Assembly (NCBI GenBank): GCA_030583725.1
Contig: CP129472.1
Span: forward strand, 755,096 to 819,095
Direction: 5' to 3'
DNA: 64,000 nucleotides
Source: a bacterium
GTDB taxonomy: Bacteria > Patescibacteriota > Microgenomatia > UBA8517
In this document: positions 24,136 to 40,816 of the stretch, piece by piece
Layout of the letters: every line of letters starts with the position of its first letter
How positions within the stretch are numbered: the first letter of the stretch is position 1
Program-made: the position numbers and the translations under genes
Notes under the pieces: generated by a model
What the model was told of the DNA's origin: nothing
Database searches by the model: none
The model's input: the letters and a program-made list of their open reading frames with translations, nothing else

Positions 24136-24537
24136 TTATTTCAGCTCAACTGTTGCGCCAGCTGCTTTTAATTTCTCACTTGCTGACTTAACATCTTCTG
24201 CTTTTGCGTCTTTTAAGACTTCAAAAGGAAGAGTTTCAGTTGCTGCTTTGGCTTCTTGTAGTCCTAAAGCTTGATTGATTTCGCGTAGTGCTTTAATAAC
24301 TGCAATTTTATTGTCTCCTGTTGCAGCCAAAACTACTGTTTGGTTACCACCTTCTGCTGCTGCGGCTGGTGCATCACCTGCTGGTGCTGCGACTGGAGCT
24401 GCTGCTGCAACTGGCATAGCTGATACTCCAAGTTTGTCTTGGAGTGCTGTTACCAACTCTGAAAGTTCGAGTACTGAAAGTTTACTAATTTCCTCGACTA
24501 ATTTTTCTACCGTTTTATTTGCTTTTTCTTCTGTCAT
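24136..24537 (-). CDS. rplL: 50S ribosomal protein L7/L12
   Basis: Characteristic N-terminal dimerisation region, Ala/Pro hinge, C-terminal domain ending ...GATVELK. Confidence 0.9.
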   Translation of the reverse strand: MTEEKANKTVEKLVEEISKLSVLELSELVTALQDKLGVSAMPVAAAAPVAAPAGDAPAAAAEGGNQTVVLAATGDNKIAVIKALREINQALGLQEAKAATETLPFEVLKDAKAEDVKSASEKLKAAGATVELK

Positions 24538-24570
24538 TCGTACTCACCTCATTTCTTTAAAAATTTATTT

Positions 24571-25122
24571 TTATTTAGCCTTTTGGCTTAAAATATATAC
24601 TAACTTTTGTAAATTTCCTTGTAGTGTTCCTACCAATCCATACATTGGTGATGAAAGTGACCCAACAACTTGAGCGTATAATGTTTCTTTTGATGGTAGC
24701 GTCGAAATTTTTAATAGTGCTTCTTTGTCTTGATATTTACCTTCAACTATACCAACTTTAAAATTTGGAATTTGATTTTCTTTAACAAACTTACCCAAAG
24801 CTTGAATTGGGGCCACTGCATCGCCCTCCGTTAAAATTATGGCTGTTTGACCTGACAATATTTCATCGTTTAAAGCTTCTTCAGGAAGCCCAGCTTCTTT
24901 ACCTGCAATCTTAATTAAAGTATTTTTAACAACTGTCATATCTGAACCGACAGCTTTTAATTCAGCCTTTAATTTTTGTTGAAGAGTAACAGACAAACCT
25001 TGATAGTTAACAAACACAACAGAAGTTGCACTCTTTAATTTTGGAGATAAACTACCAACTAAATCTTTTTTAGCCTGTAAGGCCAAGCTTTGCTTATTTT
25101 GCTTATTCATATTCCTCGACAA
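24571..25122 (-). CDS. rplJ: 50S ribosomal protein L10
   Basis: Position between rplA and rplL, size 183 aa, L10-like sequence. Confidence 0.85.
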   Translation of the reverse strand: MSRNMNKQNKQSLALQAKKDLVGSLSPKLKSATSVVFVNYQGLSVTLQQKLKAELKAVGSDMTVVKNTLIKIAGKEAGLPEEALNDEILSGQTAIILTEGDAVAPIQALGKFVKENQIPNFKVGIVEGKYQDKEALLKISTLPSKETLYAQVVGSLSSPMYGLVGTLQGNLQKLVYILSQKAK

Positions 25123-25468
25123 GACTTGTATTTAAAAACTCTTTTAAAATGCTTGTTTTCTTGGGACAAATTGTATTATATGATAACGAATCGAAAGAAT
25201 CAAGCGGTATTGGACTTGTTTAGACGTCAATCAGAGTATGATTATTTTTTAGGAAACTTCACACTTGTTTCTTCAACGACCCTTTTTTGGTTTCCGAAAG
25301 ATTTTCCAGCGCTGGTTTGAGTGACAGTTTTAAACGGGGGTGTGTTTGCAAGCTTAAGTTTTTTTTGTGCTTCTATCCATTTTTCTCTGTCTTGTGGAGA
25401 TAGGCTTGGGTCTGGCGGTAATCCTTCCATGCATCTATTAGAACATTATAGTTTGTAGATGTCAATTA

Positions 25469-26200
25469 TTATATTTGAATCTTCACACTTGGACTCATTG
25501 TGGATTTAACAAATGCACGAATTATAGATTTTGATTCTCCTAGTGCTGTTATAATGCATTCTGCGTTTTTAACTAATTCCTCTTCCTTTTGAGAAACTTT
25601 TCCAAAAGATGTGTGAATTAATGGTTGTTCTCTTTCAGTTTTAACAGTAATTAAATTACCTTTAAATTTTTCAGCATCACTGTCCTTTTTAATGACTGTT
25701 CCATTTTTTGGATTTGGCATTAAGCCACGTGGCCCCAAAAGTCTTGCATAGATAGCTAGTTTTGGCATCATCTCTGCTGTGGCTAAAAGTAAATCAAAAT
25801 CAATTTTACCAGTCTTTAGTTTTTCTAAAGTTTTTTCAGTTGCTATTTCAACTTTCTTTTGTTTTCCTGTTGAAAAAGGTAGGGTAACTTGTGCTGAAGT
25901 TCCTTGTCTTTTAACAATTAAGTGTAGTTCCATTGTTCCATCAAACTTTGAGTAAGATGACTCTTTTACCATTTTAATTGCATCACTTAGTTTATAAAGA
26001 GTGGTGCTTGAAATGTTTTCTTTAGACTTCAAGTATTTTTTACCTCTGGTGTGAGTTACAACCTTTTTAAGAGTGGCTTCAGGGTGGCTTTCAGAATGCA
26101 CAGTAGATGCTTTTTTTGCTTTTTTCTCAGCATATTTTTCAGCAGAAGTTTTGGTTTCTTCAACCATTCCTTCTACTACTGTTGTTTTCATTTTCCCCAT
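25469..26200 (-). CDS. rplA: 50S ribosomal protein L1
   Basis: ...RLLGPRGLMPNPKNGTV... and overall L1 similarity; conserved operon position. Confidence 0.9.
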   Translation of the reverse strand: MGKMKTTVVEGMVEETKTSAEKYAEKKAKKASTVHSESHPEATLKKVVTHTRGKKYLKSKENISSTTLYKLSDAIKMVKESSYSKFDGTMELHLIVKRQGTSAQVTLPFSTGKQKKVEIATEKTLEKLKTGKIDFDLLLATAEMMPKLAIYARLLGPRGLMPNPKNGTVIKKDSDAEKFKGNLITVKTEREQPLIHTSFGKVSQKEEELVKNAECIITALGESKSIIRAFVKSTMSPSVKIQI

Positions 26201-26201
26201 T

Positions 26202-26633
26202 TTAATTGTCCACCCCTTCTACTTTGATTCCCATTGATCTTGCAGTTCCTGCAACAATCCTAACTCCCATATCAACGTTGTCTGTATTCAAGTCGTCCAT
26301 TTTATCTTTTGCAATTTCCTCAGCCTGTACCTTTGAAAGTGTGGCGTGTACCGCTCTTCCTGCAGTTCCAGATCCCTTTTCAAGACCTAGTTTCTTTTTA
26401 ATCATGTCTGCAACTGGTGCCTTTTTAATAATAAAGGTAAATGTTCTATCTTCAAAAATTGTGATGACTGCTGGAACTACTTCACCCTTCATGTCTTTAG
26501 TTTTGTCATTATATGCTTTGACAAAATCCATAATAGCTACACCGTGTTGACCTAGTGCTGTTCCAACTGGAGGTGCAGGAGTGGCTTCACCACCCTTTAA
26601 ATTAATTTTAACTATTGTTTTTACTTTTGCCAT
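26202..26633 (-). CDS. rplK: 50S ribosomal protein L11 (start placed at internal Met MAKVKT...; ORF extends to 26738)
   Basis: PPVGTALGQHGVAIMDFVKAYN motif; canonical L11 N-terminus MAK(V)K... Confidence 0.9.
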   Translation of the reverse strand: MAKVKTIVKINLKGGEATPAPPVGTALGQHGVAIMDFVKAYNDKTKDMKGEVVPAVITIFEDRTFTFIIKKAPVADMIKKKLGLEKGSGTAGRAVHATLSKVQAEEIAKDKMDDLNTDNVDMGVRIVAGTARSMGIKVEGVDN

Positions 26634-27000
26634 ATATTTATTAGATACTAGATTTAAAATTTTTTTAGATAAACAAGGGGAAACAGTTTTTAAAGAAGTT
26701 TCGACTTGTTTAGTCTCCCACAAATTAACGTGGTGCAATTATTGTATCATTGTAGTAATATTATTTCAATATGGCAGAAGGCGGTAACTCAAACAATGAA
26801 AATTCTGCAACTAAAAATGATTGGGTTATTCCTATTGCAAGAGGTCTTGATTTGAAAAAAGAAAAACATTGGGCAATAGTAGCTTTATACGACTTATTTG
26901 GCTGGAGAACTACTAAAAACAAAGAAGGTTTGTATGATATAGATCAAGAAGTGATTGGTCCAACAGACCCTGAATCAAATGAGCAGTAATTTTTTTTAGA

Positions 27001-27615
27001 TTAAATTTTTGCTATTTGTAAGAAGTCTAGTTCTACTGGAGTTTCTCTTCCAAAGATTGAGACCAAAACTTTTACTTTTCCTTTTTCCTCATCTATCTCG
27101 TGGATTGTGCCTAAAAAGTCAGAAAATGGACCGTCTGTAATTTTAACAGCCTCTCCACTTACAAACTTTGTTTTATATCTTGGAGCAGGGGAACTTACGA
27201 ACTTTTGAATATTTTTAACTTCAATTTCAGATAAAGGTGTTGGTTTGTTTCCAGCACCTACAAATCCTGTGATACCTGCAGTTGTCCTGACAGCCAACCA
27301 AGTTTCGTCATCTAAAATCATTTTAACTAATAGGTATCCTGGGAATATCTTTTCCTTTATTTGTGTTTTTTTACCACCCCTAATTATAATTTTATCTTGT
27401 GTTGGAACCAACATCTCAAAGATAGTAGTCTTTAGGTTCATTGTTTCCACCCTTTGTCTTAAGGTTTCCATAACACGGACTTCATGGCCTGAAGAAGTGT
27501 GAACCACATACCATTTAGCTTTTGGATCCTCTGTTTGATTAATAATCATATGACCTGGAATTTTTTTATTTCCAGTTCCTTTTTCTGAAATTTGTGCAGA
27601 TTGTGTATTATCCAT
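27001..27615 (-). CDS. nusG: Transcription termination/antitermination factor NusG
   Basis: [15 protein letters not shown] domain start, C-terminal KOW ([22 protein letters not shown]). Confidence 0.9.
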
Positions 27616-27636
27616 ATTTTTTTACTTTTTAATAGT

Positions 27637-27822
27637 TTAAAGTGACAATAAATAGTCCAAGGTCTTTGTAAGCGAAAAGTCAATTAAACCTACAAAAGAA
27701 GCTACTATTATTGATAGCACTATAACTAAACTTAGGTAGTTTATCACGACTTCGCGTTTTGGCCAAGTAACTTTTTCAAGTTCTTGTTTAACCTCGACAA
27801 GAAAGTTGGCGATTCTCTTCAT
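27637..27822 (-). CDS. secE: Preprotein translocase subunit SecE
   Basis: 61 aa, single C-terminal TM, canonical position immediately upstream of nusG. Confidence 0.7.
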   Translation of the reverse strand: MKRIANFLVEVKQELEKVTWPKREVVINYLSLVIVLSIIVASFVGLIDFSLTKTLDYLLSL

Positions 27823-28017
27823 TTAATAATTCCTTTTCTTTTCAAGCATACGATTAAATTCAATCTTGTACTTTTTCTCTTTTCTTTTTTCAGAAGGCTT
27901 TTTAAACCTTTCTCGGTCACGAAGTTCCAGCAAAAGACCCGACATTAAAGTCTTCTTTCGAAATCGTGCCAATAAGGCGTCGTCTGACTCTCCCTTTTTC
28001 TTTGTTACTACAAACAT
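27823..28017 (-). CDS. rpsU: 30S ribosomal protein S21
   Basis: ...ALLARFRKKTLMSGLLLELRDRERFKKPSEKRK... aligns with S21 (ALRRFKR...[21 protein letters not shown]). Confidence 0.7.
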   Translation of the reverse strand: MFVVTKKKGESDDALLARFRKKTLMSGLLLELRDRERFKKPSEKRKEKKYKIEFNRMLEKKRNY

Positions 28018-28061
28018 ATTTAAAAAAATCGCCTCCTTTCACCCTTAACATTAGAATGATT

Positions 28062-28183
28062 ATAACATAACAATGTTGAAGTTCATAACATAACAATGTT
28101 GAAGTTCATAACATAACAATGTTGAGGTTCATAACATAACAATGTTGAAGTTCATAACATAACAATGTTGAAGTTCATAACAT
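28062..28183. repeat. Tandem direct repeat, 23-bp unit ATAACATAACAATGTTGAAGTTC x5 plus partial sixth copy
   Basis: Copies start at 28062, 28085, 28108, 28131, 28154 (one G variant), partial at 28177; lies immediately upstream of rpsU. Confidence 0.9.
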
Positions 28184-28189
28184 TTAATT

Positions 28190-28762
28190 TTAGATATTCG
28201 TAGGTGGTACTATATTGGAGTGGTTGTTTTTGTGGTTACTCCCGACTGTTAGATATATAGACAAAATAACTATTAAAACAAAAAGTCCAAACAAATAAAG
28301 AGCATATTCTGCAAAAAACCGATTTTGGTATTCATCTTCTTGCTTCTCAGTTTGTGTTTCAGCAATTGGTTCGATGCTAGGTGTTGGATTTTTTGTTACT
28401 TGAGGAGTTGCACTTACAGTTGCAATGGGTGTTTGGCTGGGTTTTGTTGTTGATGATGGTGATATTGTTGCCTTTGCTGTAGTTGTTGGTGAGCTACAAA
28501 CACAATCTGTTTTTTCTGCACAAATTGGATTTCTACAAAAACCTTCATGACAAAAGAGGTTGGCCTGACAGTTATAGTTACTACCACAAGTACCACCACA
28601 AAAATTTGGTTCACCTTGGGCCCTTTTGTTTAGATTGAAGTTTACATTTAAGGCTGTCCAAACAAAAAGTGGGAGTGCAATTACTGTTGCAAAAAACAGC
28701 CCAGTCAAAAGAGAATTTTTTGCAGTAGGTGGGAGGTTTTTATAGTTAAATGAAGTGGACAT
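28190..28762 (-). CDS. Membrane-anchored protein with a compact Cys-rich module (10 Cys in ~45 aa), Thr/Pro-rich linker and a C-terminal TM helix
   Basis: NFCGGTCGSNYNCQANLFCHEGFCRNPICAEKTDCVC; N-terminal signal-anchor and C-terminal hydrophobic helix. Confidence 0.4.
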   Translation of the reverse strand: MSTSFNYKNLPPTAKNSLLTGLFFATVIALPLFVWTALNVNFNLNKRAQGEPNFCGGTCGSNYNCQANLFCHEGFCRNPICAEKTDCVCSSPTTTAKATISPSSTTKPSQTPIATVSATPQVTKNPTPSIEPIAETQTEKQEDEYQNRFFAEYALYLFGLFVLIVILSIYLTVGSNHKNNHSNIVPPTNI

Positions 28763-30073: not shown

Positions 30074-30340
30074 TTAGTTCATGTCAGCCACAAGTTCTTG
30101 GATGACTTTGTGGTCGATGCCCATCCGGGTGAGCGCGTCTTTGAGATGACGCTGGAGTCTGGTTACATAATAACCTGCTACACCTTGTGGCGTGCATTTT
30201 GTAGCGGGTTCATTGTACAGATTCCATTGGCTCTGCAGGTCATTCCGAATGTAGGTACGGAATGTTGTGGTAGCACCATCTGTTGTTGCCTCGATCCTGA
30301 CTTCACCTGCACCAGACTGAACTATCACTTTGTCACTCAT
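30074..30340 (-). CDS. Hypothetical protein (88 aa) in a locally GC-enriched segment, good SD (aaggagacaac) upstream
   Basis: ORF with ~48% GC versus ~33% window background; no recognisable domain. Confidence 0.35.
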   Translation of the reverse strand: MSDKVIVQSGAGEVRIEATTDGATTTFRTYIRNDLQSQWNLYNEPATKCTPQGVAGYYVTRLQRHLKDALTRMGIDHKVIQELVADMN

Positions 30341-30846: not shown

Positions 30847-31029
30847 TTAGCAGCCGCGTTCTTGTGAACGGGCAATGTCGATTGCAACGAGGTATTCATC
30901 GTTGCTACCGTGCTCATTGCGCACTTTTGTTTCCAGTTCATCAAGGCTGATCGCTTCTGCAACTAATTTTTTCCCAACCTTAAGCCTGTAACAAGACTGG
31001 AACTTGTGAACTCTTATATCAGCGGACAT
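30847..31029 (-). CDS. Hypothetical small protein (60 aa), GC-enriched
   Basis: ORF only. Confidence 0.25.
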   Translation of the reverse strand: MSADIRVHKFQSCYRLKVGKKLVAEAISLDELETKVRNEHGSNDEYLVAIDIARSQERGC

Positions 31030-31146
31030 TTTAAACTCCTTTTGTTGGAATACTCAAAGCAATTTTGAGTTAGGGATATTATACTATAGGTAAATGACCA
31101 TTTGCAAGTTTAACTGGGATTTAGTAGTTGGGTGTTTTTCCTTCTT

Positions 31147-31342
31147 TGCACCAATCTATGATTTAGCTCGAAAATATTTTATATCAAATTTTTAAGCGAG
31201 CAACAAGGGAGGGGTTAAAGGGGAAGGAATTGTTGCGAAGCTTCGTGTTTCCTCGCTCAGCCACTTCGTGGCTTCGCTAACACACCTGCAAAGCTCGAAG
31301 CTTTGCGCTCACCCCACTTCGTGGGGTTCGCTAACCCAATTG
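31147..31342. repeat. IR-A left copy: 196-bp GC-rich sequence that recurs as a perfect inverted copy at 38571-38766; outer terminus TGCA
   Basis: Base-by-base reverse-complement match over all 196 bp; contains internal direct repeats (ccacttcgtgg..ttcgctaac x2) and palindromes (cgaagcttcg). Confidence 0.95.
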
Positions 31343-31800
31343 AAAGGAAAAGGGGTTTTGTAGTCAGTCGCTTGCGAGCGCCTGACGAAAGTGCCCTTGC
31401 GGTATACCGTAAGCACCTTTACAAAATCCGCAATCGTGTCGTATTATAGGGCATATTGCGGAGTTGCGGTACTGCGGTTGCCGTTGCGGTCACCGCAAGT
31501 CCACATATGAACACAAAAACTAATCCAAACCTATTTTTAAAAGATTTCTAATGTATCATTTCAGTCACAATCTGTCCAACAGGGACAGCTAAACCAAGTG
31601 CTGAAAACAGAACAAGGTGCTTGCGCACAGCACTTGGTTAGAAGACAGGACAACAGAACCATTGCTCCTGAAATATTCCCTTAACAGGGAATCCTGCCCA
31701 GCACAAAGCACCCCAAAGCTACAGGGGTGATGGCTTACGCCATGTGCTAGGCAGGAGAACAAAAACACACCAGCACATACTATTTTTGGTGTTATAATCT
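31343..31800. other. ORF-free, GC-enriched, hairpin-dense stretch with clustered TTGCGG/CCGCAA repeats; candidate structured ncRNA, iteron/centromere-like array or recombinase-binding region
   Basis: No ORF >=60 aa on either strand; TTGCGG repeats at ~31397-31490; perfect 10-bp stem ccaagtgctg...cagcacttgg at 31607-31650; several further 5-7 bp stems. Confidence 0.5.
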
Positions 31801-31807
31801 TAATGTT

Positions 31808-32689
31808 ATGTTTTTACAGAAATCAAAGGAGAATGCATTTATACTAGCAGTTATTGCTGCTTTTTGTGGTGGTTCAATAGTTGTTGCGGCTAAAATTGCA
31901 CTAGAAGTTTTTCAACCATTTACAATAGTTTTTATTAGATTTCTATCTGCTACATTATTTTTAATTCCATTAATTGTTAGGGCAAAAGAATTCAAAGTTT
32001 CTACAATCAAAAAGTTTATACCAATTGGAATAGTTGGAGCATTAAATCCAATACTTTTATTTATAGCTTTACAATACACCAAGGCTTCAGTTTCACCATT
32101 AATATATGCAAGTGTTCCTGCAATGACCGCTGTTTATGTTTATTTGGTTAGAAAAGAAAAAATAAGTAAACAAAGTATATTTGGAATAATTATTGGTTTC
32201 ATAGGAGTTGCACTTATTATTCTTCTCCCACTTATTGAAAAGGGTGTTCCACTAGTTGCATTGAAAGGAAATATCTTAATTTTTGGGGCAGCCATAGCCT
32301 TTATGTATTACGGAATAATGAGCAAGAAACATCAGAATGAGATGAACGCATCTCCAATTGTATTAACCTTTTATTTTGCTTTGGTAACTTTATTTTTGAG
32401 TATACCGTTTGCAATTAATGAAGTTAGAAACGGATTTCTTGGAACGGTTGAGTTAAAACATATATTGGCTGGGATTTATACAGGAGTTGTAGGAACAGGA
32501 ATATTTTATCTTGCTTACCAATATGCTTTAAAGCTTGGATCAGAAATTGCAGCAAATTTATTTACATATTTACAACCAATAGCAACAATTTTACTTGCCT
32601 CACTCTTTTTAGGAGAGAGAATAACGATACCTTTTGTTATCGGTGGTTTGTTGGCAGTAATTGGAGCCAAGATTGCTTCGAAAAAATAA
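31808..32689 (+). CDS. EamA/DMT-superfamily transporter (10 TM)
   Basis: Two ~140-aa repeated 5-TM halves, typical EamA organisation. Confidence 0.75.
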   Translation: MFLQKSKENAFILAVIAAFCGGSIVVAAKIALEVFQPFTIVFIRFLSATLFLIPLIVRAKEFKVSTIKKFIPIGIVGALNPILLFIALQYTKASVSPLIYASVPAMTAVYVYLVRKEKISKQSIFGIIIGFIGVALIILLPLIEKGVPLVALKGNILIFGAAIAFMYYGIMSKKHQNEMNASPIVLTFYFALVTLFLSIPFAINEVRNGFLGTVELKHILAGIYTGVVGTGIFYLAYQYALKLGSEIAANLFTYLQPIATILLASLFLGERITIPFVIGGLLAVIGAKIASKK

Positions 32690-33497
32690 TATATATTGCT
32701 TCTTAATTTCCACAGGTCTAATATTTAAATATACCCTCATGGAAGAAGATGTTTTAAGTCAGATTAAAAGTGAGAATGCAAAGAAACAAACAAGAAGTAG
32801 CAGTGGTAAGTTTGTTGCAAAAGATGATCCAACAAAACTTCCTCCAATCTCAGTATCAGTTAATAATCCAACTTCAGTAAATACAACAACTCCACCTGAT
32901 CTAGTTAATCTAAAAGTAACTAATCCACTTGTATATATTAAATACTGGTGGAAAAGAATAATGGCAAATGAAGGTATTGAAGTTAAGTTTAAAGCAAAAC
33001 CACTAACTGTGTTTGGTGTTGCCTTAATTGGATTTACACTTCTCTTTGGTATTGGTGGAGTTGTTCTACCTATTTTCTTTCCTTGGATGAAGTTTAATAA
33101 TTCTATAATCTCAACTCCAACAAATACCCCAACTCCAGAAATTTTAAAAGATACTGCACTTAAAGGAATACTAACAAAAACAAATACTAATCCTGTTAAA
33201 TTCTATTTAATCACTACCTCAACAGAAGCAGTAACTTTAGAAATACCAGTTGGTTTTAATTTAAATACTCTAGTTGGAAAAAGGATCTTAGCTGTAGGTA
33301 CATATGATTCAAAAAACAAAATACTTGAAGTTGAAGATATACAAGATTTAGAAGTACTTTCAACAACACCAGTACCAATACCAACAACAACTCCAACACC
33401 AAAACCAACTGAAACTCCTATTCCTACAATTGCTCCAACCATGGTTCCAACTGTAGAACCAACGATTGCACCAAGTGAAGATCCAATAAGTTTATAA
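32661..33497 (+). CDS. Membrane protein with a C-terminal Pro/Thr-rich repeat tail
   Basis: Central TM helix (PLTVFGVALIGFTLLFGIGGVVLPIFF), C-terminal TTPVPIPTTTPTPKPTETPIPTIAPT...; start uncertain (overlaps EamA end). Confidence 0.4.
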   Translation: MEPRLLRKNNIYCFLISTGLIFKYTLMEEDVLSQIKSENAKKQTRSSSGKFVAKDDPTKLPPISVSVNNPTSVNTTTPPDLVNLKVTNPLVYIKYWWKRIMANEGIEVKFKAKPLTVFGVALIGFTLLFGIGGVVLPIFFPWMKFNNSIISTPTNTPTPEILKDTALKGILTKTNTNPVKFYLITTSTEAVTLEIPVGFNLNTLVGKRILAVGTYDSKNKILEVEDIQDLEVLSTTPVPIPTTTPTPKPTETPIPTIAPTMVPTVEPTIAPSEDPISL

Positions 33498-38048: not shown

Positions 38049-38567
38049 ATGTCGAATAACAAATTTGTTTTAGTCCCAGTTGATCTTCTTAAAAATTTAA
38101 GAGAATTATCCAAAGGCACAGAATATGAAGACGAAGTCAAAAAAGTTTTAGACTCAAGGGAAGCCATAGAAAATCATGATATTACAAAATTACCAAAGTC
38201 TGCAGTAGTTAAAAGAGTGATAGATGGAGACACTGTAGAGTTATTTAACGGTACTGTTCTTCGCTACACAGCAATTACAGCACCAGAAGATGGAGAATCA
38301 TTTGCAGAAGAAGCTACTAAGTTAAACCAAGAATTAGTTGAAGGCAAAGAAATTAAACTTGAATATGACAACTACACCTCTGACAAATTTGGAAGAATTC
38401 TTGCATATCCAATCATAGACAACAAAAATATTTGTATTGAACTTGTTTCAAAAGGTATGGCTGAATTAGTTATTTACCAAAAAAGAAAGCCATTTATTCA
38501 TCAAGTTCAATTATTAGAAGCACAAGAACAAGCAAAGAAAAACAAACAAGGAATTTGGAAGAACTGA
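38049..38567 (+). CDS. Staphylococcal-nuclease-like (thermonuclease/SNase) domain protein
   Basis: VIDGDTVEL...RYTAITAPE...GRILAY... matches SNase catalytic core (DGDT / R..IDaPE); 172 aa. Confidence 0.7.
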   Translation: MSNNKFVLVPVDLLKNLRELSKGTEYEDEVKKVLDSREAIENHDITKLPKSAVVKRVIDGDTVELFNGTVLRYTAITAPEDGESFAEEATKLNQELVEGKEIKLEYDNYTSDKFGRILAYPIIDNKNICIELVSKGMAELVIYQKRKPFIHQVQLLEAQEQAKKNKQGIWKN

Positions 38568-38570
38568 ACA

Positions 38571-38766
38571 CAATTGGGTTAGCGAACCCCACGAAGTGGG
38601 GTGAGCGCAAAGCTTCGAGCTTTGCAGGTGTGTTAGCGAAGCCACGAAGTGGCTGAGCGAGGAAACACGAAGCTTCGCAACAATTCCTTCCCCTTTAACC
38701 CCTCCCTTGTTGCTCGCTTAAAAATTTGATATAAAATATTTTCGAGCTAAATCATAGATTGGTGCA
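38571..38766. repeat. IR-A right copy (perfect reverse complement of 31147-31342); begins 3 nt after the SNase stop codon; outer terminus ...TGCA
   Basis: 196/196 identity to the left copy in inverted orientation. Confidence 0.95.
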
Positions 38767-38827
38767 TACCCCCGACCTGTCGGGGTCGAGCGAAGCGAAG
38801 ACCACGACTTTTGCCCATCCCCTCGGA
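38763..38827. repeat. IR-B left copy: 65-bp GC-rich sequence, perfect inverted partner at 40363-40427; shares the TGCA terminus with IR-A right copy (4-nt overlap)
   Basis: tgcatacccccgacctgtcggggtcgagcgaagcgaagaccacgacttttgcccatcccctcgga is the reverse complement of 40363-40427. Confidence 0.95.
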
Positions 38828-38912
38828 CAAAACAAAACATCAAAACAAACACAAATTGATATTATTTGATATCTTGATACGTATTATTTACGGGCGTATA
38901 AATAATATTGGT

Positions 38913-40526
38913 ATGACCAATATTGTAAATGATCCTTCTCAAGATAGATATTTTATATACGCTCGCAAGTCTACGGATGTGGAAGATAAACAGGTTCAAT
39001 CAATTGATGGACAACTTGAAGAGTTAAGGTTACTTGCCAAGAGAGAAAATCTGATTGTTGTAGATGAACTTATTGAAAAACAATCAGCTAAAATTCCCGG
39101 AAGACCTGTGTTCAATAAAATGCTTGATAGGATTGAGAAAGGTCAGGCTTCAGGGATTCTCTCTTGGCATCCAGATAGACTTGCTCGTAATTCTGTTGAT
39201 GGAGGAAAAATAATCTTTTTTGTAGATACAGGAAAGATATCTGCCCTCAAATTTAACACCTTTTGGTTTGAACCCACTCCTCAGGGTAAATTTATGTTGT
39301 CAATTTCGTTTGGACAATCGAAATATTATGTGGATTCTTTAAGTGAAAATACTCGTCGTGGGTTACACCAAAAAGCTAGAAATGGATATTTCCCAGGAGT
39401 AGCGCCTTACGGTTATTTAAATGATTCTCGCAATAAAACGATTGTTGTAAATAAAAAAGTTGCTCCTGTTATTGCTAAGGCTTTCGAAATGTATTCTGAG
39501 GGAAATATCCAATTAAGTGATGTTGGTAGCTTTTTGGAAACGCAAAAGGTGTTAAATACACAAGGAAGGAGAATTAGAGACGATCGTGTTAGAAAGATAC
39601 TAAAACAACCATTTTATTGTGGCTTGTTCGAGTATTGTGGAGAAGTGTATGAGGGCAGACATGATCCAATAATTTCAAAGAAACTTTTTGATAAAGTCCA
39701 AGATGTTCTAAAAATGAGAAATAAACAATGGAGCAAAGCTGTTGTTGAAAGAGTTCATAAACCTTATCTTGGACTTTTTAGGTGTGGTGAGTGTGGTATG
39801 GCTATAACAGGAGATATCAAAAATAAGTTTTATCCAATAAAAAATCGTCACGCTAGTTATTGTTATTATCGTTGTACTAAAAAGAATAAAAACATCTCCT
39901 GTAGCCAACCACACATCACTGAAAGTGATTTGGATAAATTACTCACCACACATATCAAAAAGTATTCTTTGAAAAAGATTTACGCAAATCAGATGCTTTC
40001 TAAACTAAAACAAGAGGAATCTGATATTGCTAAATCTTGCCTTGATGCTATTAGTATCAAGAGAAAGGATTCGGAACAAATAGACATTAAAATAAAATTA
40101 CTTCTTGAAAGCTATTTAGATCAGATCATTGATAAGCAGACTTTTCAAGAAAGTAAGCTGGATTTAATGTCTAAAAAGAAAACAATAGAGGAGCAAATCC
40201 TTTCTCTTAAAAGGAATCAAAATAATTGGATCGAACCTTTTAAAAACTGGATAATTGAAGCTAGTAGAGTAGATCAAATAATATCAACTAATGACAAAGA
40301 TGCCAAAAAGGTACTCGCCGAAAAAATTTTCGGCTCGAACTTGTTAATTGAAAACAAAAAACTCCGAGGGGATGGGCAAAAGTCGTGGTCTTCGCTTCGC
40401 TCGACCCCGACAGGTCGGGGGTATGCAAGGGTGGATAGAATCGAACTATCATTACCTGTTTTGGAGACAGGAGGCCTACCATTGACCGACACCCTTATAT
40501 ATTTGGAATTATATCAATTATGGTGA
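38913..40526 (+). CDS. Large serine recombinase (resolvase catalytic domain, recombinase domain, zinc-ribbon, coiled-coil tail)
   Basis: N-terminal YARKSTDVEDKQ (Y-x-R-x-S-T-x-x-Q nucleophile motif), zinc ribbon CGECG...YYRCTKK; ATG at 38913 preferred over the TTG at 38811 that lies inside IR-B; the 3' ~55 codons are encoded by IR-B' and the antisense of tRNA-Trp. Confidence 0.85.
   Translation: MTNIVNDPSQDRYFIYARKSTDVEDKQVQSIDGQLEELRLLAKRENLIVVDELIEKQSAKIPGRPVFNKMLDRIEKGQASGILSWHPDRLARNSVDGGKIIFFVDTGKISALKFNTFWFEPTPQGKFMLSISFGQSKYYVDSLSENTRRGLHQKARNGYFPGVAPYGYLNDSRNKTIVVNKKVAPVIAKAFEMYSEGNIQLSDVGSFLETQKVLNTQGRRIRDDRVRKILKQPFYCGLFEYCGEVYEGRHDPIISKKLFDKVQDVLKMRNKQWSKAVVERVHKPYLGLFRCGECGMAITGDIKNKFYPIKNRHASYCYYRCTKKNKNISCSQPHITESDLDKLLTTHIKKYSLKKIYANQMLSKLKQEESDIAKSCLDAISIKRKDSEQIDIKIKLLLESYLDQIIDKQTFQESKLDLMSKKKTIEEQILSLKRNQNNWIEPFKNWIIEASRVDQIISTNDKDAKKVLAEKIFGSNLLIENKKLRGDGQKSWSSLRSTPTGRGYARVDRIELSLPVLETGGLPLTDTLIYLELYQLW
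40363..40427. repeat. IR-B right copy, terminus ...TGCA overlapping the 3' end of tRNA-Trp
   Basis: 65/65 reverse-complement identity with 38763-38827. Confidence 0.95.
40426..40496 (-). tRNA. tRNA-Trp (anticodon CCA)
   Basis: Hand-folded cloverleaf: acceptor AAGGGTG/CACCCTT, anticodon stem CCTGT/ACAGG with loop CTCCAAA, T-arm GATAG-TTCGATT-CTATC, discriminator G; 71 nt. Confidence 0.75.
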
Positions 40527-40816
40527 TAGAATAGCTAGTTCATATGATAAAAGAAGGATTACTGGTTCCATGCCCTTTTTTTGCTGGTAAATATTGTAGC
40601 GAAGGTTGTTCAAATTTTTACAATGTTTTAGTTGCAACAGCAGAAGAGGCAAGTAATAGAGATGCAAGTTTTGTTCAGGTTGTTGAGGAGATTGTAAACG
40701 CAAGCAACGCAGAAGTGTCTTCGAGGCGAATGACCCTAAAGCATTTAGAAGCTTCTTCACAATGCGATAACAACATGAAGCATTGATTTGTCTAAAAGAC
40801 TATTATAACATCAGAT

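Follow-up and report, generated by a model that had tools for sequence, protein, structure and literature searches.

The window analysed here, a 64,000-nt stretch of DNA, carries at 31343-31765, together with the preceding 31147-31342, what is probably a new large structured RNA borne by a mobile element. We refer to the two segments as F and b, respectively. The conserved noncoding unit b+F spans about 620 nt (ca 31147-31765), with a core of about 350-390 nt. Some 55 conserved loci, compensatory base changes, UNCG tetraloops and a noncoding pattern of insertions and deletions bear out one of the options raised by the sequence-only reading for 31343-31800, namely a structured noncoding RNA. 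As part of this reading, the unit belongs to a family of Woesebacteria/Microgenomates mobile elements with the following arrangement: b - F - variable cargo - b* - alpha - large serine recombinase - alpha* - tRNA 3' end.

Bacterial RNAs of large size and intricate fold are uncommon, and most known classes are ribozymes, ribonucleoprotein cores or self-assembling cages. The candidate described here (350-620 nt, more than 50 representatives) is element-borne and has so far been found only in ultra-small groundwater Woesebacteria/Microgenomates, whose RNA biology is, to our knowledge, almost unexplored. If the reading is right, it would constitute a new RNA class for these organisms. The element itself is notable for its two adjoining, near-perfect inverted-repeat pairs and for the many different tRNA 3' ends at which it is found. 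It is thus of interest with respect to target choice by recombinases and to genome engineering.

The region 31343-31800 had been singled out as GC-rich and free of open reading frames, and both statements hold. In 200-nt windows covering 31200-31500 and 31600-31800, the GC fraction is between 0.47 and 0.54, compared with 0.343 for the entire window, and no ORF located within the region attains 60 aa. The only short ORFs overlapping it are a 48-aa TTG ORF (31303-31449, + strand) and a 59-aa GTG ORF (31589-31768, - strand). A fivefold TTGCGG repeat had also been described. Four copies are exact (31397, 31456, 31464 and 31484) and the fifth is the near-copy CTGCGG at 31472; the reported spacing of 7-12 bp applies to the last four, the first being located 59 nt upstream. 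The inverted CCGCAA partners are present, at 31428 and 31493. Four of the nine TTGCGG copies of the whole 64 kb are packed within 93 nt of this region. The stem reported as a perfect 10-bp one is indeed perfect and is in fact a 12-nt inverted repeat, AACCAAGTGCTG/CAGCACTTGGTT (31592-31603 / 31628-31639). An additional 14-nt stem, 31692-31705 / 31743-31756, is 93% complementary. Folding of 31195-31800 gives a minimum free energy of -216.9 kcal/mol, compared with -171.2±7.9 kcal/mol for shuffled sequences (z = -5.8), and the reverse strand gives a near-identical fold score. The GC-rich structured stretch begins about 150 nt before 31343, near 31200. Position 31343 itself coincides with the inner edge of an inverted repeat whose two 196-nt arms, 31147-31342 and 38571-38766, match perfectly.

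The unit recurs at 55 further loci, in groundwater metagenomes and in genomes of Woesebacteria/Microgenomates. Metagenomes were queried with two invariant blocks, CACAGCACTTGG N18-30 ATTGCTCCTG, and this pattern was found at 51 groundwater metagenome loci. The sampling sites behind the homologues are the Hainich wells H41, H43 and H51 and those of JGI groundwater samples. Genome copies near the recombinase comprise three full ones, with F at 78-81% identity, and a partial one; three full copies of the unit occur within one Woesebacteria genome. Viral contigs contained no match to the b motif or to the invariant-block pattern. Another pattern, TTGCGGNNTTGCGGNNCTGCGG, gave 8 matches in viral contigs, all in phage contigs of 50-70% GC that show no other similarity, and these were set aside as chance matches. 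A blastn search of 31100-31810 against phage and plasmid collections returned zero matches. Conservation runs unbroken from about 31150 to about 31775, with a median pairwise identity of 65% in the core, which argues that b and F form a single unit. One subfamily has a different 5' domain, yet the same GCTCA-hairpin-TCGCTTAAC modules are found there, and the core common to both subfamilies extends over ca 31385-31765. The AT-rich stretch of about 40 nt is present in the window and about a dozen relatives and is missing elsewhere. In some relatives, domain 3 is swapped for a short covarying hairpin with a UGCG loop. The features of the unit and of its surroundings are collected in Table 1.

Table 1. 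Features of the conserved unit and of the element that carries it (positions in the window)
Feature	Position	Strand	Remarks
Arm b of the perfect inverted repeat (196 nt), which doubles as 5' domain of the conserved unit	31147-31342	+	left arm
Contents of b: purine-rich loop closed by CAACAA/TTGTTG; module GCTCA-hairpin-TTCGCTAAC, twice	within 31147-31342	+	
Outer 45 nt of b: outward-facing extended -10 promoter-like site; terminal TGCA	31158-31187 (promoter-like site)	-	
Core of the conserved structured unit (F)	31343-31765	+	conservation stops near 31765-31775
Domain 1	31363-31512	+	P0, PA, PB, NNCGG-rich region
Hairpin P0	31363-31386	+	domain 1
Long-range helix PA, TTGCGG/CCGCAA	31397-31402 / 31428-31433	+	domain 1
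Hairpin PB around GTATTAT	31437-31453	+	domain 1
NNCGG-rich region with the iteron-like TTGCGG copies	31456-31498	+	domain 1
AT-rich insertion separating domains 1 and 2, about 40 nt	31513-31555	+	single subfamily only (about 12 sequences)
Domain 2, multi-helix junction	31556-31691	+	
Invariant closing helix, ATTTCAG..GCAAT / ATTGC..CTGAAAT	31559-31571 / 31661-31673	+	domain 2
Covarying hairpin H1	31572-31588	+	domain 2
Invariant hairpin H2, CCAAGTGCT/AGCACTTGG, with inner UNCG-type hairpin	31594-31637	+	domain 2
Covarying hairpin H3	31676-31691	+	domain 2
Domain 3, branched 3' hairpin: CCTGCC/GGCAGG, GCAC/GTGC, CACCCC/GGGGTG, TGGC/GCCA	31692-31756	+	
Extended -10 promoter-like site TGTTATAAT (31791-31799), 8 nt upstream of the EamA ATG (31808)	31791-31810	+	outside the conserved unit
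Arm b*, 100% identical inverted copy of 31147-31342	38571-38766	-	starts 3 nt past the stop codon of the SNase-family gene
alpha, left arm of the 65-nt perfect inverted repeat flanking the recombinase gene	38763-38827	+	4-nt overlap with b* (TGCA)
Large serine recombinase gene (Resolvase, Recombinase and zinc-ribbon/Zn_ribbon_recom domains)	38913-40526	+	
alpha*, right arm of the 65-nt inverted repeat	40363-40427	-	overlaps the last three bases of tRNA-Trp
tRNA-Trp	40425-40496	-	

The predicted structure was tested as 103 pairs in 21 helices, drawn from the window sequence and scored on an alignment of 34 sequences. Paired cells amount to 81.7% in the 34 sequences; sliding the 3' partners by 1-3 columns lowers this share to 30-42%. 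Pairs that change on both sides number 47 of 103, against 31.0±2.8 in shuffles, none of 500 reaching 47, and 21-28 in the slid versions. The covariation score is 0.144 versus 0.092 (shuffled) and 0.035-0.056 (slid). Helix PA illustrates these changes, with the variants TTGCGG/CCGCAA, TGACGG/CCGTCA and TAACGG/CCGTTA, as does H1, where CTGTCC/GGACAG alternates with TTGCCC/GGGCAA. Compensatory changes are also clear in P0, in H3 and in four helices of domain 3 (31693-31755). Comparison with homologous regions, proposed by the sequence-only reading as a check, therefore shows stems conserved with compensatory changes across diverged homologues. RNAalifold applied to a MAFFT alignment of the whole unit recovered 32 pairs only, the variable hairpins being misaligned, and the noise of a naive all-against-all covariation scan was too high.

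The two nested helices of domain 2 show no variation in 34-45 sequences, which share about 65% identity elsewhere. Because these helices never vary, they bring no evidence of pairing. Their invariance suggests a contact with a protein partner or a tertiary contact, and they could equally be sites read as double-stranded DNA. More generally, the whole region might act as DNA, through single-stranded hairpins or protein sites, and serve as an origin of replication or transfer, or provide sites with an accessory or regulatory role to the recombinase or to another element protein. We consider this a serious but rather unlikely alternative. F does adjoin, on the inner side, the terminal inverted repeat of an element that carries a recombinase, and the invariant inverted repeats of domain 2 fit sequence-specific recognition. 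The fold z-score is also equal on both strands. On the other hand, the hairpins located beside the invariant ones covary, and covariation is not needed in double-stranded sites. The invariant repeats could be accessory sites of the recombinase, although many recombinase loci have no F within 10 kb.

The TTGCGG copies bear on the same question. An iteron array or a replication origin had been proposed for them, and this proposal is not supported: the hexamer is not kept as a repeat, and its copies change together with their complements. Domain 1 of every homologue contains 5-9 NNCGG words and 3-6 CCGNN words. TGCGG is the only NNCGG form in the subfamily of the window; the others mix GACGG, AACGG and TACGG, matched by CCGTC, CCGTT and CCGTA. 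Since the flavours of NNCGG track the complementary CCGNN, the TTGCGG copies are best described as strands of helices and would then not be binding sites for one protein. The remaining copies of domain 1 possibly form a tangle of alternative, pseudoknot-like pairings. A local hairpin pointed out in the sequence-only reading, CTTGCGG-TATA-CCGTAAG, is weaker than PA. It shows 17 mismatches in 43 sequences at one position and cannot form in one subfamily.

As in an iteron origin, short direct repeats are clustered here within a mobile element, and an AT-rich stretch adjoins the TTGCGG cluster in the window, which would also suit a region acting as DNA; this stretch is, however, absent in most relatives. 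Iteron units of plasmid origins measure 17-22 nt. The units found here differ from them, being 6 nt long, irregularly spaced, not conserved in relatives and covarying with their complements, and no initiator gene was identified. Protein-domain searches of the window detected no Rep family near 31343-31800, and no relaxase gene was recognised either. The only hint comes from a 789-aa KAP-type NTPase with a weak P-loop match to Orc1/Cdc6 (30 bits, the cut-off being 181).

Several features bear on the strand from which the candidate RNA would be produced. C-G-closed UNCG tetraloops (UUCG, UGCG), a feature of RNA, are found on the + strand in P0, in the inner hairpin of H2 and in the domain 3 hairpins. 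The linkers are A-rich on the same strand (AT skew +0.23 to +0.26), and the orientation of the unit is constant relative to the neighbouring genes. For these three reasons the + strand is favoured, and the candidate RNA is most likely made from it. Counts of G-U versus A-C pairs are 160 versus 158 overall, a balance that favours neither strand, as would be expected of DNA, and that is distorted by one-column shifts of the alignment and by non-homologous 3' domains. In PA and PB, G-U pairs are common and the count becomes 24 versus 5, in favour of the + strand and against a role as DNA; H3 and poorly aligned parts show the reverse. No convincing + strand promoter or intrinsic terminator of the unit was found in the sequence.

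A decayed coding sequence, or an unrecognised gene for a small protein, is scarcely credible as an explanation of the region. The short ORFs mentioned above overlap it, and some relatives have ORFs of 70-250 aa over the region, but in differing frames and on differing strands. Any given reading frame over the unit is open in at most 11 of 53 homologous copies. The lengths of the spacers between the invariant blocks are evenly spread modulo 3, insertions and deletions not being multiples of three. The even spread and the lack of a shared open frame show that the region is noncoding. In addition, substitutions are compensatory across stems. The check for degraded coding sequence in 31343-31800, by indels modulo 3, frames and compensatory substitutions, thus revealed no coding signature.

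The genes that follow the unit in the window are, rightward, EamA, o278 (32661-33497), which encodes a Pro/Thr-rich membrane protein, two genes of unknown function, a PfkB kinase gene, the KAP-type NTPase gene and a gene for a staphylococcal-nuclease (SNase) homologue ending at 38567. After the latter come b*, alpha and the recombinase gene, whose final ca 55 codons traverse alpha* and the antisense strand of tRNA-Trp. On the left, the ribosomal protein-nusG-secE cluster (24136-27822, - strand) is separated from tRNA-Trp by about 12 kb. This cluster and tRNA-Trp are normally neighbours, so that the intervening 12 kb look inserted. An exact look-up of the EamA protein retrieved one 1.4-kb contig only, identical to the window.

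The position of the unit ahead of a gene raises the possibility that it acts in cis, as a long 5' leader (riboswitch, attenuator or antiterminator) that regulates whichever gene follows, EamA in the window. We regard this as clearly unlikely. In its favour, unit and downstream gene are on the same strand at every locus. The downstream gene starts 164-193 nt past the anchor CACAGCACTTGG, that is 15-45 nt past the 3' hairpin, whichever gene it is. No terminator-like site is observed on the + strand between the unit and the EamA start codon, and the alternative pairings of domain 1, such as the local hairpin versus the long-range PA, are of a kind that a leader might use. However, the downstream gene is not conserved. 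EamA, for which a riboswitch-like leader had been suggested, follows the unit in the window only, and the 77 related loci contain no EamA homologue. Elsewhere, the genes after F encode a Pro/Thr-rich membrane protein homologous to o278 (several loci, at least five), a 543-aa protein (five loci), a 619-aa protein, and others. Because of this variation, a ligand-specific riboswitch is unlikely. Promoter-like sites also intervene. In the window, TGTTATAAT (31791-31799) is a perfect extended -10 located between the unit and the EamA ATG, beyond the conserved part, and a conserved ATTGCAG box is found upstream of the o278 homologues. Finally, a length of 350-620 nt would exceed by far that of the leaders known to us.

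The organization of the element was deduced from comparison of loci. Homologues of the recombinase were found at 26 loci of species-representative genomes, mostly of Candidatus Woesebacteria/Microgenomates, with up to five per genome. In these loci, the alpha inverted repeat flanks the recombinase gene and b* is located directly upstream of alpha; in 8 of them an SNase gene precedes b*. In both subfamilies, a long inverted repeat (99-223 nt) encloses the cargo and a second one (55-108 nt) encloses the recombinase gene. The two repeats abut or overlap slightly, by 3-4 bases in most loci (TGCA in the window). Arm identity within one element is mostly 97-100% (about 91% in L021), and the arms differ between elements. 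F always adjoins one arm of the long inverted repeat, on the inner side. This is the far arm in the window and in L021, L066, L058 and L070, and the recombinase-proximal arm in L047, L056 and L038. Since F occurs at either arm, the cargo segment has been inverted during evolution. In nearly every locus, a tRNA gene meets the outer alpha arm with its 3' end, and the identity of the tRNA varies. In L060, the element splits tRNA-Phe from tRNA-Gly, a pair located about 90 nt apart in L028.

The recombinase gene is on the same contig in 20 F-carrying loci. It lies downstream of F, always on the same strand, in 8 of the 15 loci with at least 8 kb of downstream sequence. Conversely, 22 of the 26 genome recombinase loci lack F within 10 kb despite the presence of b*-alpha-recombinase. 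F is therefore unlikely to be required for recombination as such. An attP or attB role for F was also discarded, because F is intact inside elements bounded by the outer ends of b and alpha*. This intactness in integrated elements excludes F as a crossover site and argues against the DNA reading as well.

Under the structured-RNA reading that we favour, b and F would be transcribed as an RNA of their own, not as the leader of an mRNA, and this RNA would serve the element rather than the cargo gene. The arm b is kept identical to b*, which sits just upstream of the recombinase gene. As a weakly supported guess, the b+F RNA might therefore pair with any transcript that reads through b* from the nuclease gene and in this way make recombinase expression depend on the element's state. 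The identity of b and b* may also simply result from gene conversion acting on the inverted repeats. An RNA similar to ROOL/GOLLD, serving as a scaffold or assembling with itself, is as possible as antisense pairing. A more specific proposal, in which the b+F RNA would be a dedicated partner of the large serine recombinase that regulates recombination, sets its direction or helps in target choice, seems to us very unlikely. If true, it would be the first RNA-assisted serine recombinase system.

Searches for known RNA families agree with the novelty of the candidate. As the sequence-only reading had proposed, the window was scanned with Rfam 15, together with 10 homologous loci, and only tRNAs reach the gathering score. 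The families covered include ROOL, GOLLD, OLE, HEARO, RNase P, tmRNA, 6S, group I/II introns and riboswitches. A permissive scan of 30900-31900, with E up to 10, gave nothing better than E = 1.7, for a sub-threshold match to c-di-GMP-I that is located in b on the - strand and scores 16.8 bits, the cut-off being 35. A tRNA-like reading of the GGGGTTCGCTAACCC motifs in b was rejected, as zero tRNA matches were obtained even at E up to 10. Literature searches yielded no account of the b+F RNA or of its element.

Some known systems nevertheless offer points of comparison. ROOL and GOLLD are large "ornate" noncoding RNAs of bacteria and phages, carried by prophages and mobile elements and often located beside tRNA genes. 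The b+F unit resembles them in its length of several hundred nucleotides, its many helices, its standing out as a structured island, its location in an element and its proximity to tRNA genes. However, neither covariance model matches b+F at E up to 10. The host is also different (Woesebacteria/Microgenomates), the element is a serine-recombinase one abutting tRNA 3' ends, and the 5' domain is duplicated as an inverted repeat of the element. OLE RNA, of about 600 nt, occurs in Firmicutes and works with membrane proteins. It is similar to b+F in size, and a gene for a membrane protein is often found directly downstream of it, as the o278 homologue is downstream of b+F in at least five loci. In contrast to OLE, b+F has no Rfam match, its partner gene is inconstant, and it is element-borne and multi-copy.

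The bridge RNA of IS110 and the omega RNA of IscB/TnpB are structured RNAs that originate from the noncoding end of an element and guide a recombinase or a nuclease. Here too, a structured unit is found at the end of an element whose recombinase has flexible targets, in this case many tRNA genes. The recombinase is, however, a large serine recombinase and not of the DEDD type found in IS110, and we know of no large serine recombinase that uses an RNA. In addition, a distance of 2-10 kb usually separates F from the recombinase gene, and many recombinase loci are devoid of F. Guide-like complementarity was searched for, in a crude test, between the 420 nt upstream of the recombinase gene and the 3' end of the cognate tRNA. 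The mean longest match was 7.0 versus 7.07. The idea of a guide RNA thus finds no support in this recombinase-proximal noncoding region, which shows no excess complementarity to the cognate tRNA.

With respect to the element, a comparison can be made with tycheposons. Tycheposons reportedly integrate at tRNA genes and form tandem arrays. They are cargo-carrying elements (bioRxiv 10.1101/2020.12.28.424599). The Woesebacteria element is similar in adjoining tRNA genes, in its variable cargo and in occurring in tandem, and it differs by its host and by the clade of its recombinase. Two further features to be set beside tycheposons are the double inverted-repeat plan of the Woesebacteria element and its large structured noncoding unit.

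The large serine recombinase gene is flanked by near-perfect inverted repeats of 55-108 nt, the outer arm of which adjoins the 3' end of a tRNA gene (window 38763-40527; loci L010-L032). The identity of this tRNA changes between loci: it is tRNA-Trp in the window and Arg, Tyr, Ser, Val, Leu, Gln, Pro, Thr, Cys, Gly, Ile or Ala elsewhere. Genomes contain several copies of the cassette, which appears to be a serine-recombinase element, so far undescribed, with general targeting of tRNA 3' ends. At 40363-40526, the recombinase reading frame runs on across alpha*, the outer repeat arm, and across tRNA-Trp in antisense; its last ~55 residues therefore depend on the insertion site. In L016 (5447-10270) and L052, cassettes are nested in each other, with several concentric inverted-repeat pairs, and elements also occur in tandem, with a recombinase gene between two F units, the conserved structured noncoding cores.

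All repeat arms in the window terminate with the palindrome TGCA (31147-31150, 38763-38766, 40424-40427), at the same position as the discriminator-plus-CA of the tRNA; other loci have overlaps of the GTG/CAC type instead. A TCGA(A) or GCTCGAA motif lies 18-27 nt in from the TGCA end of each arm, a placement resembling that of the tRNA T-loop on the target side. Arm ends with these two motifs may be recombinase half-sites, and the internal junction between b* and alpha, the inner arms of the two repeats, resembles an uncut attachment site.

Each b arm bears a conserved, outward-facing promoter-like site of the extended -10 type, at 31158-31187 (-) and 38726-38755 (+). Its sequence is TGnTAAAAT in most relatives and TGATATAAA in the window. 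The b* copy points at the recombinase gene; the left-arm copy points at the chromosome and, in other loci, at the next tRNA gene. The b arm also contains a purine-rich loop, GGGAGGGGTTAAAGGGGAAGGAA (31209-31229), with several Shine-Dalgarno-like or G-tract motifs. The loop hardly varies within one subfamily, and the stem that closes it covaries (CAACAA/TTGTTG versus TCTCCAA/TTGGAGA).

Just outside the left arm lie two small ORFs of ~47-50% GC that have no family match and were found in none of the related loci. The shorter one is preceded by TTGCAA-18-TATAAT (31107-31078), which resembles a strong promoter. Farther left, a 23-nt unit, ATAACATAACAATGTTGAAGTTC, is repeated in ~6 tandem copies that are 97-100% identical. 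This array is flanked by an unannotated gene and by a short ORF that, by eye, looks like ribosomal protein S21.

Features to the left of the element
Feature	Position	Strand	Size
Short ORF (S21-like)	27823-28017	-	
ATAACATAACAATGTTGAAGTTC tandem array	28039-28200		
Unannotated gene		-	190 aa
Small ORF	30074-30340	-	88 aa
Small ORF	30847-31029	-	60 aa
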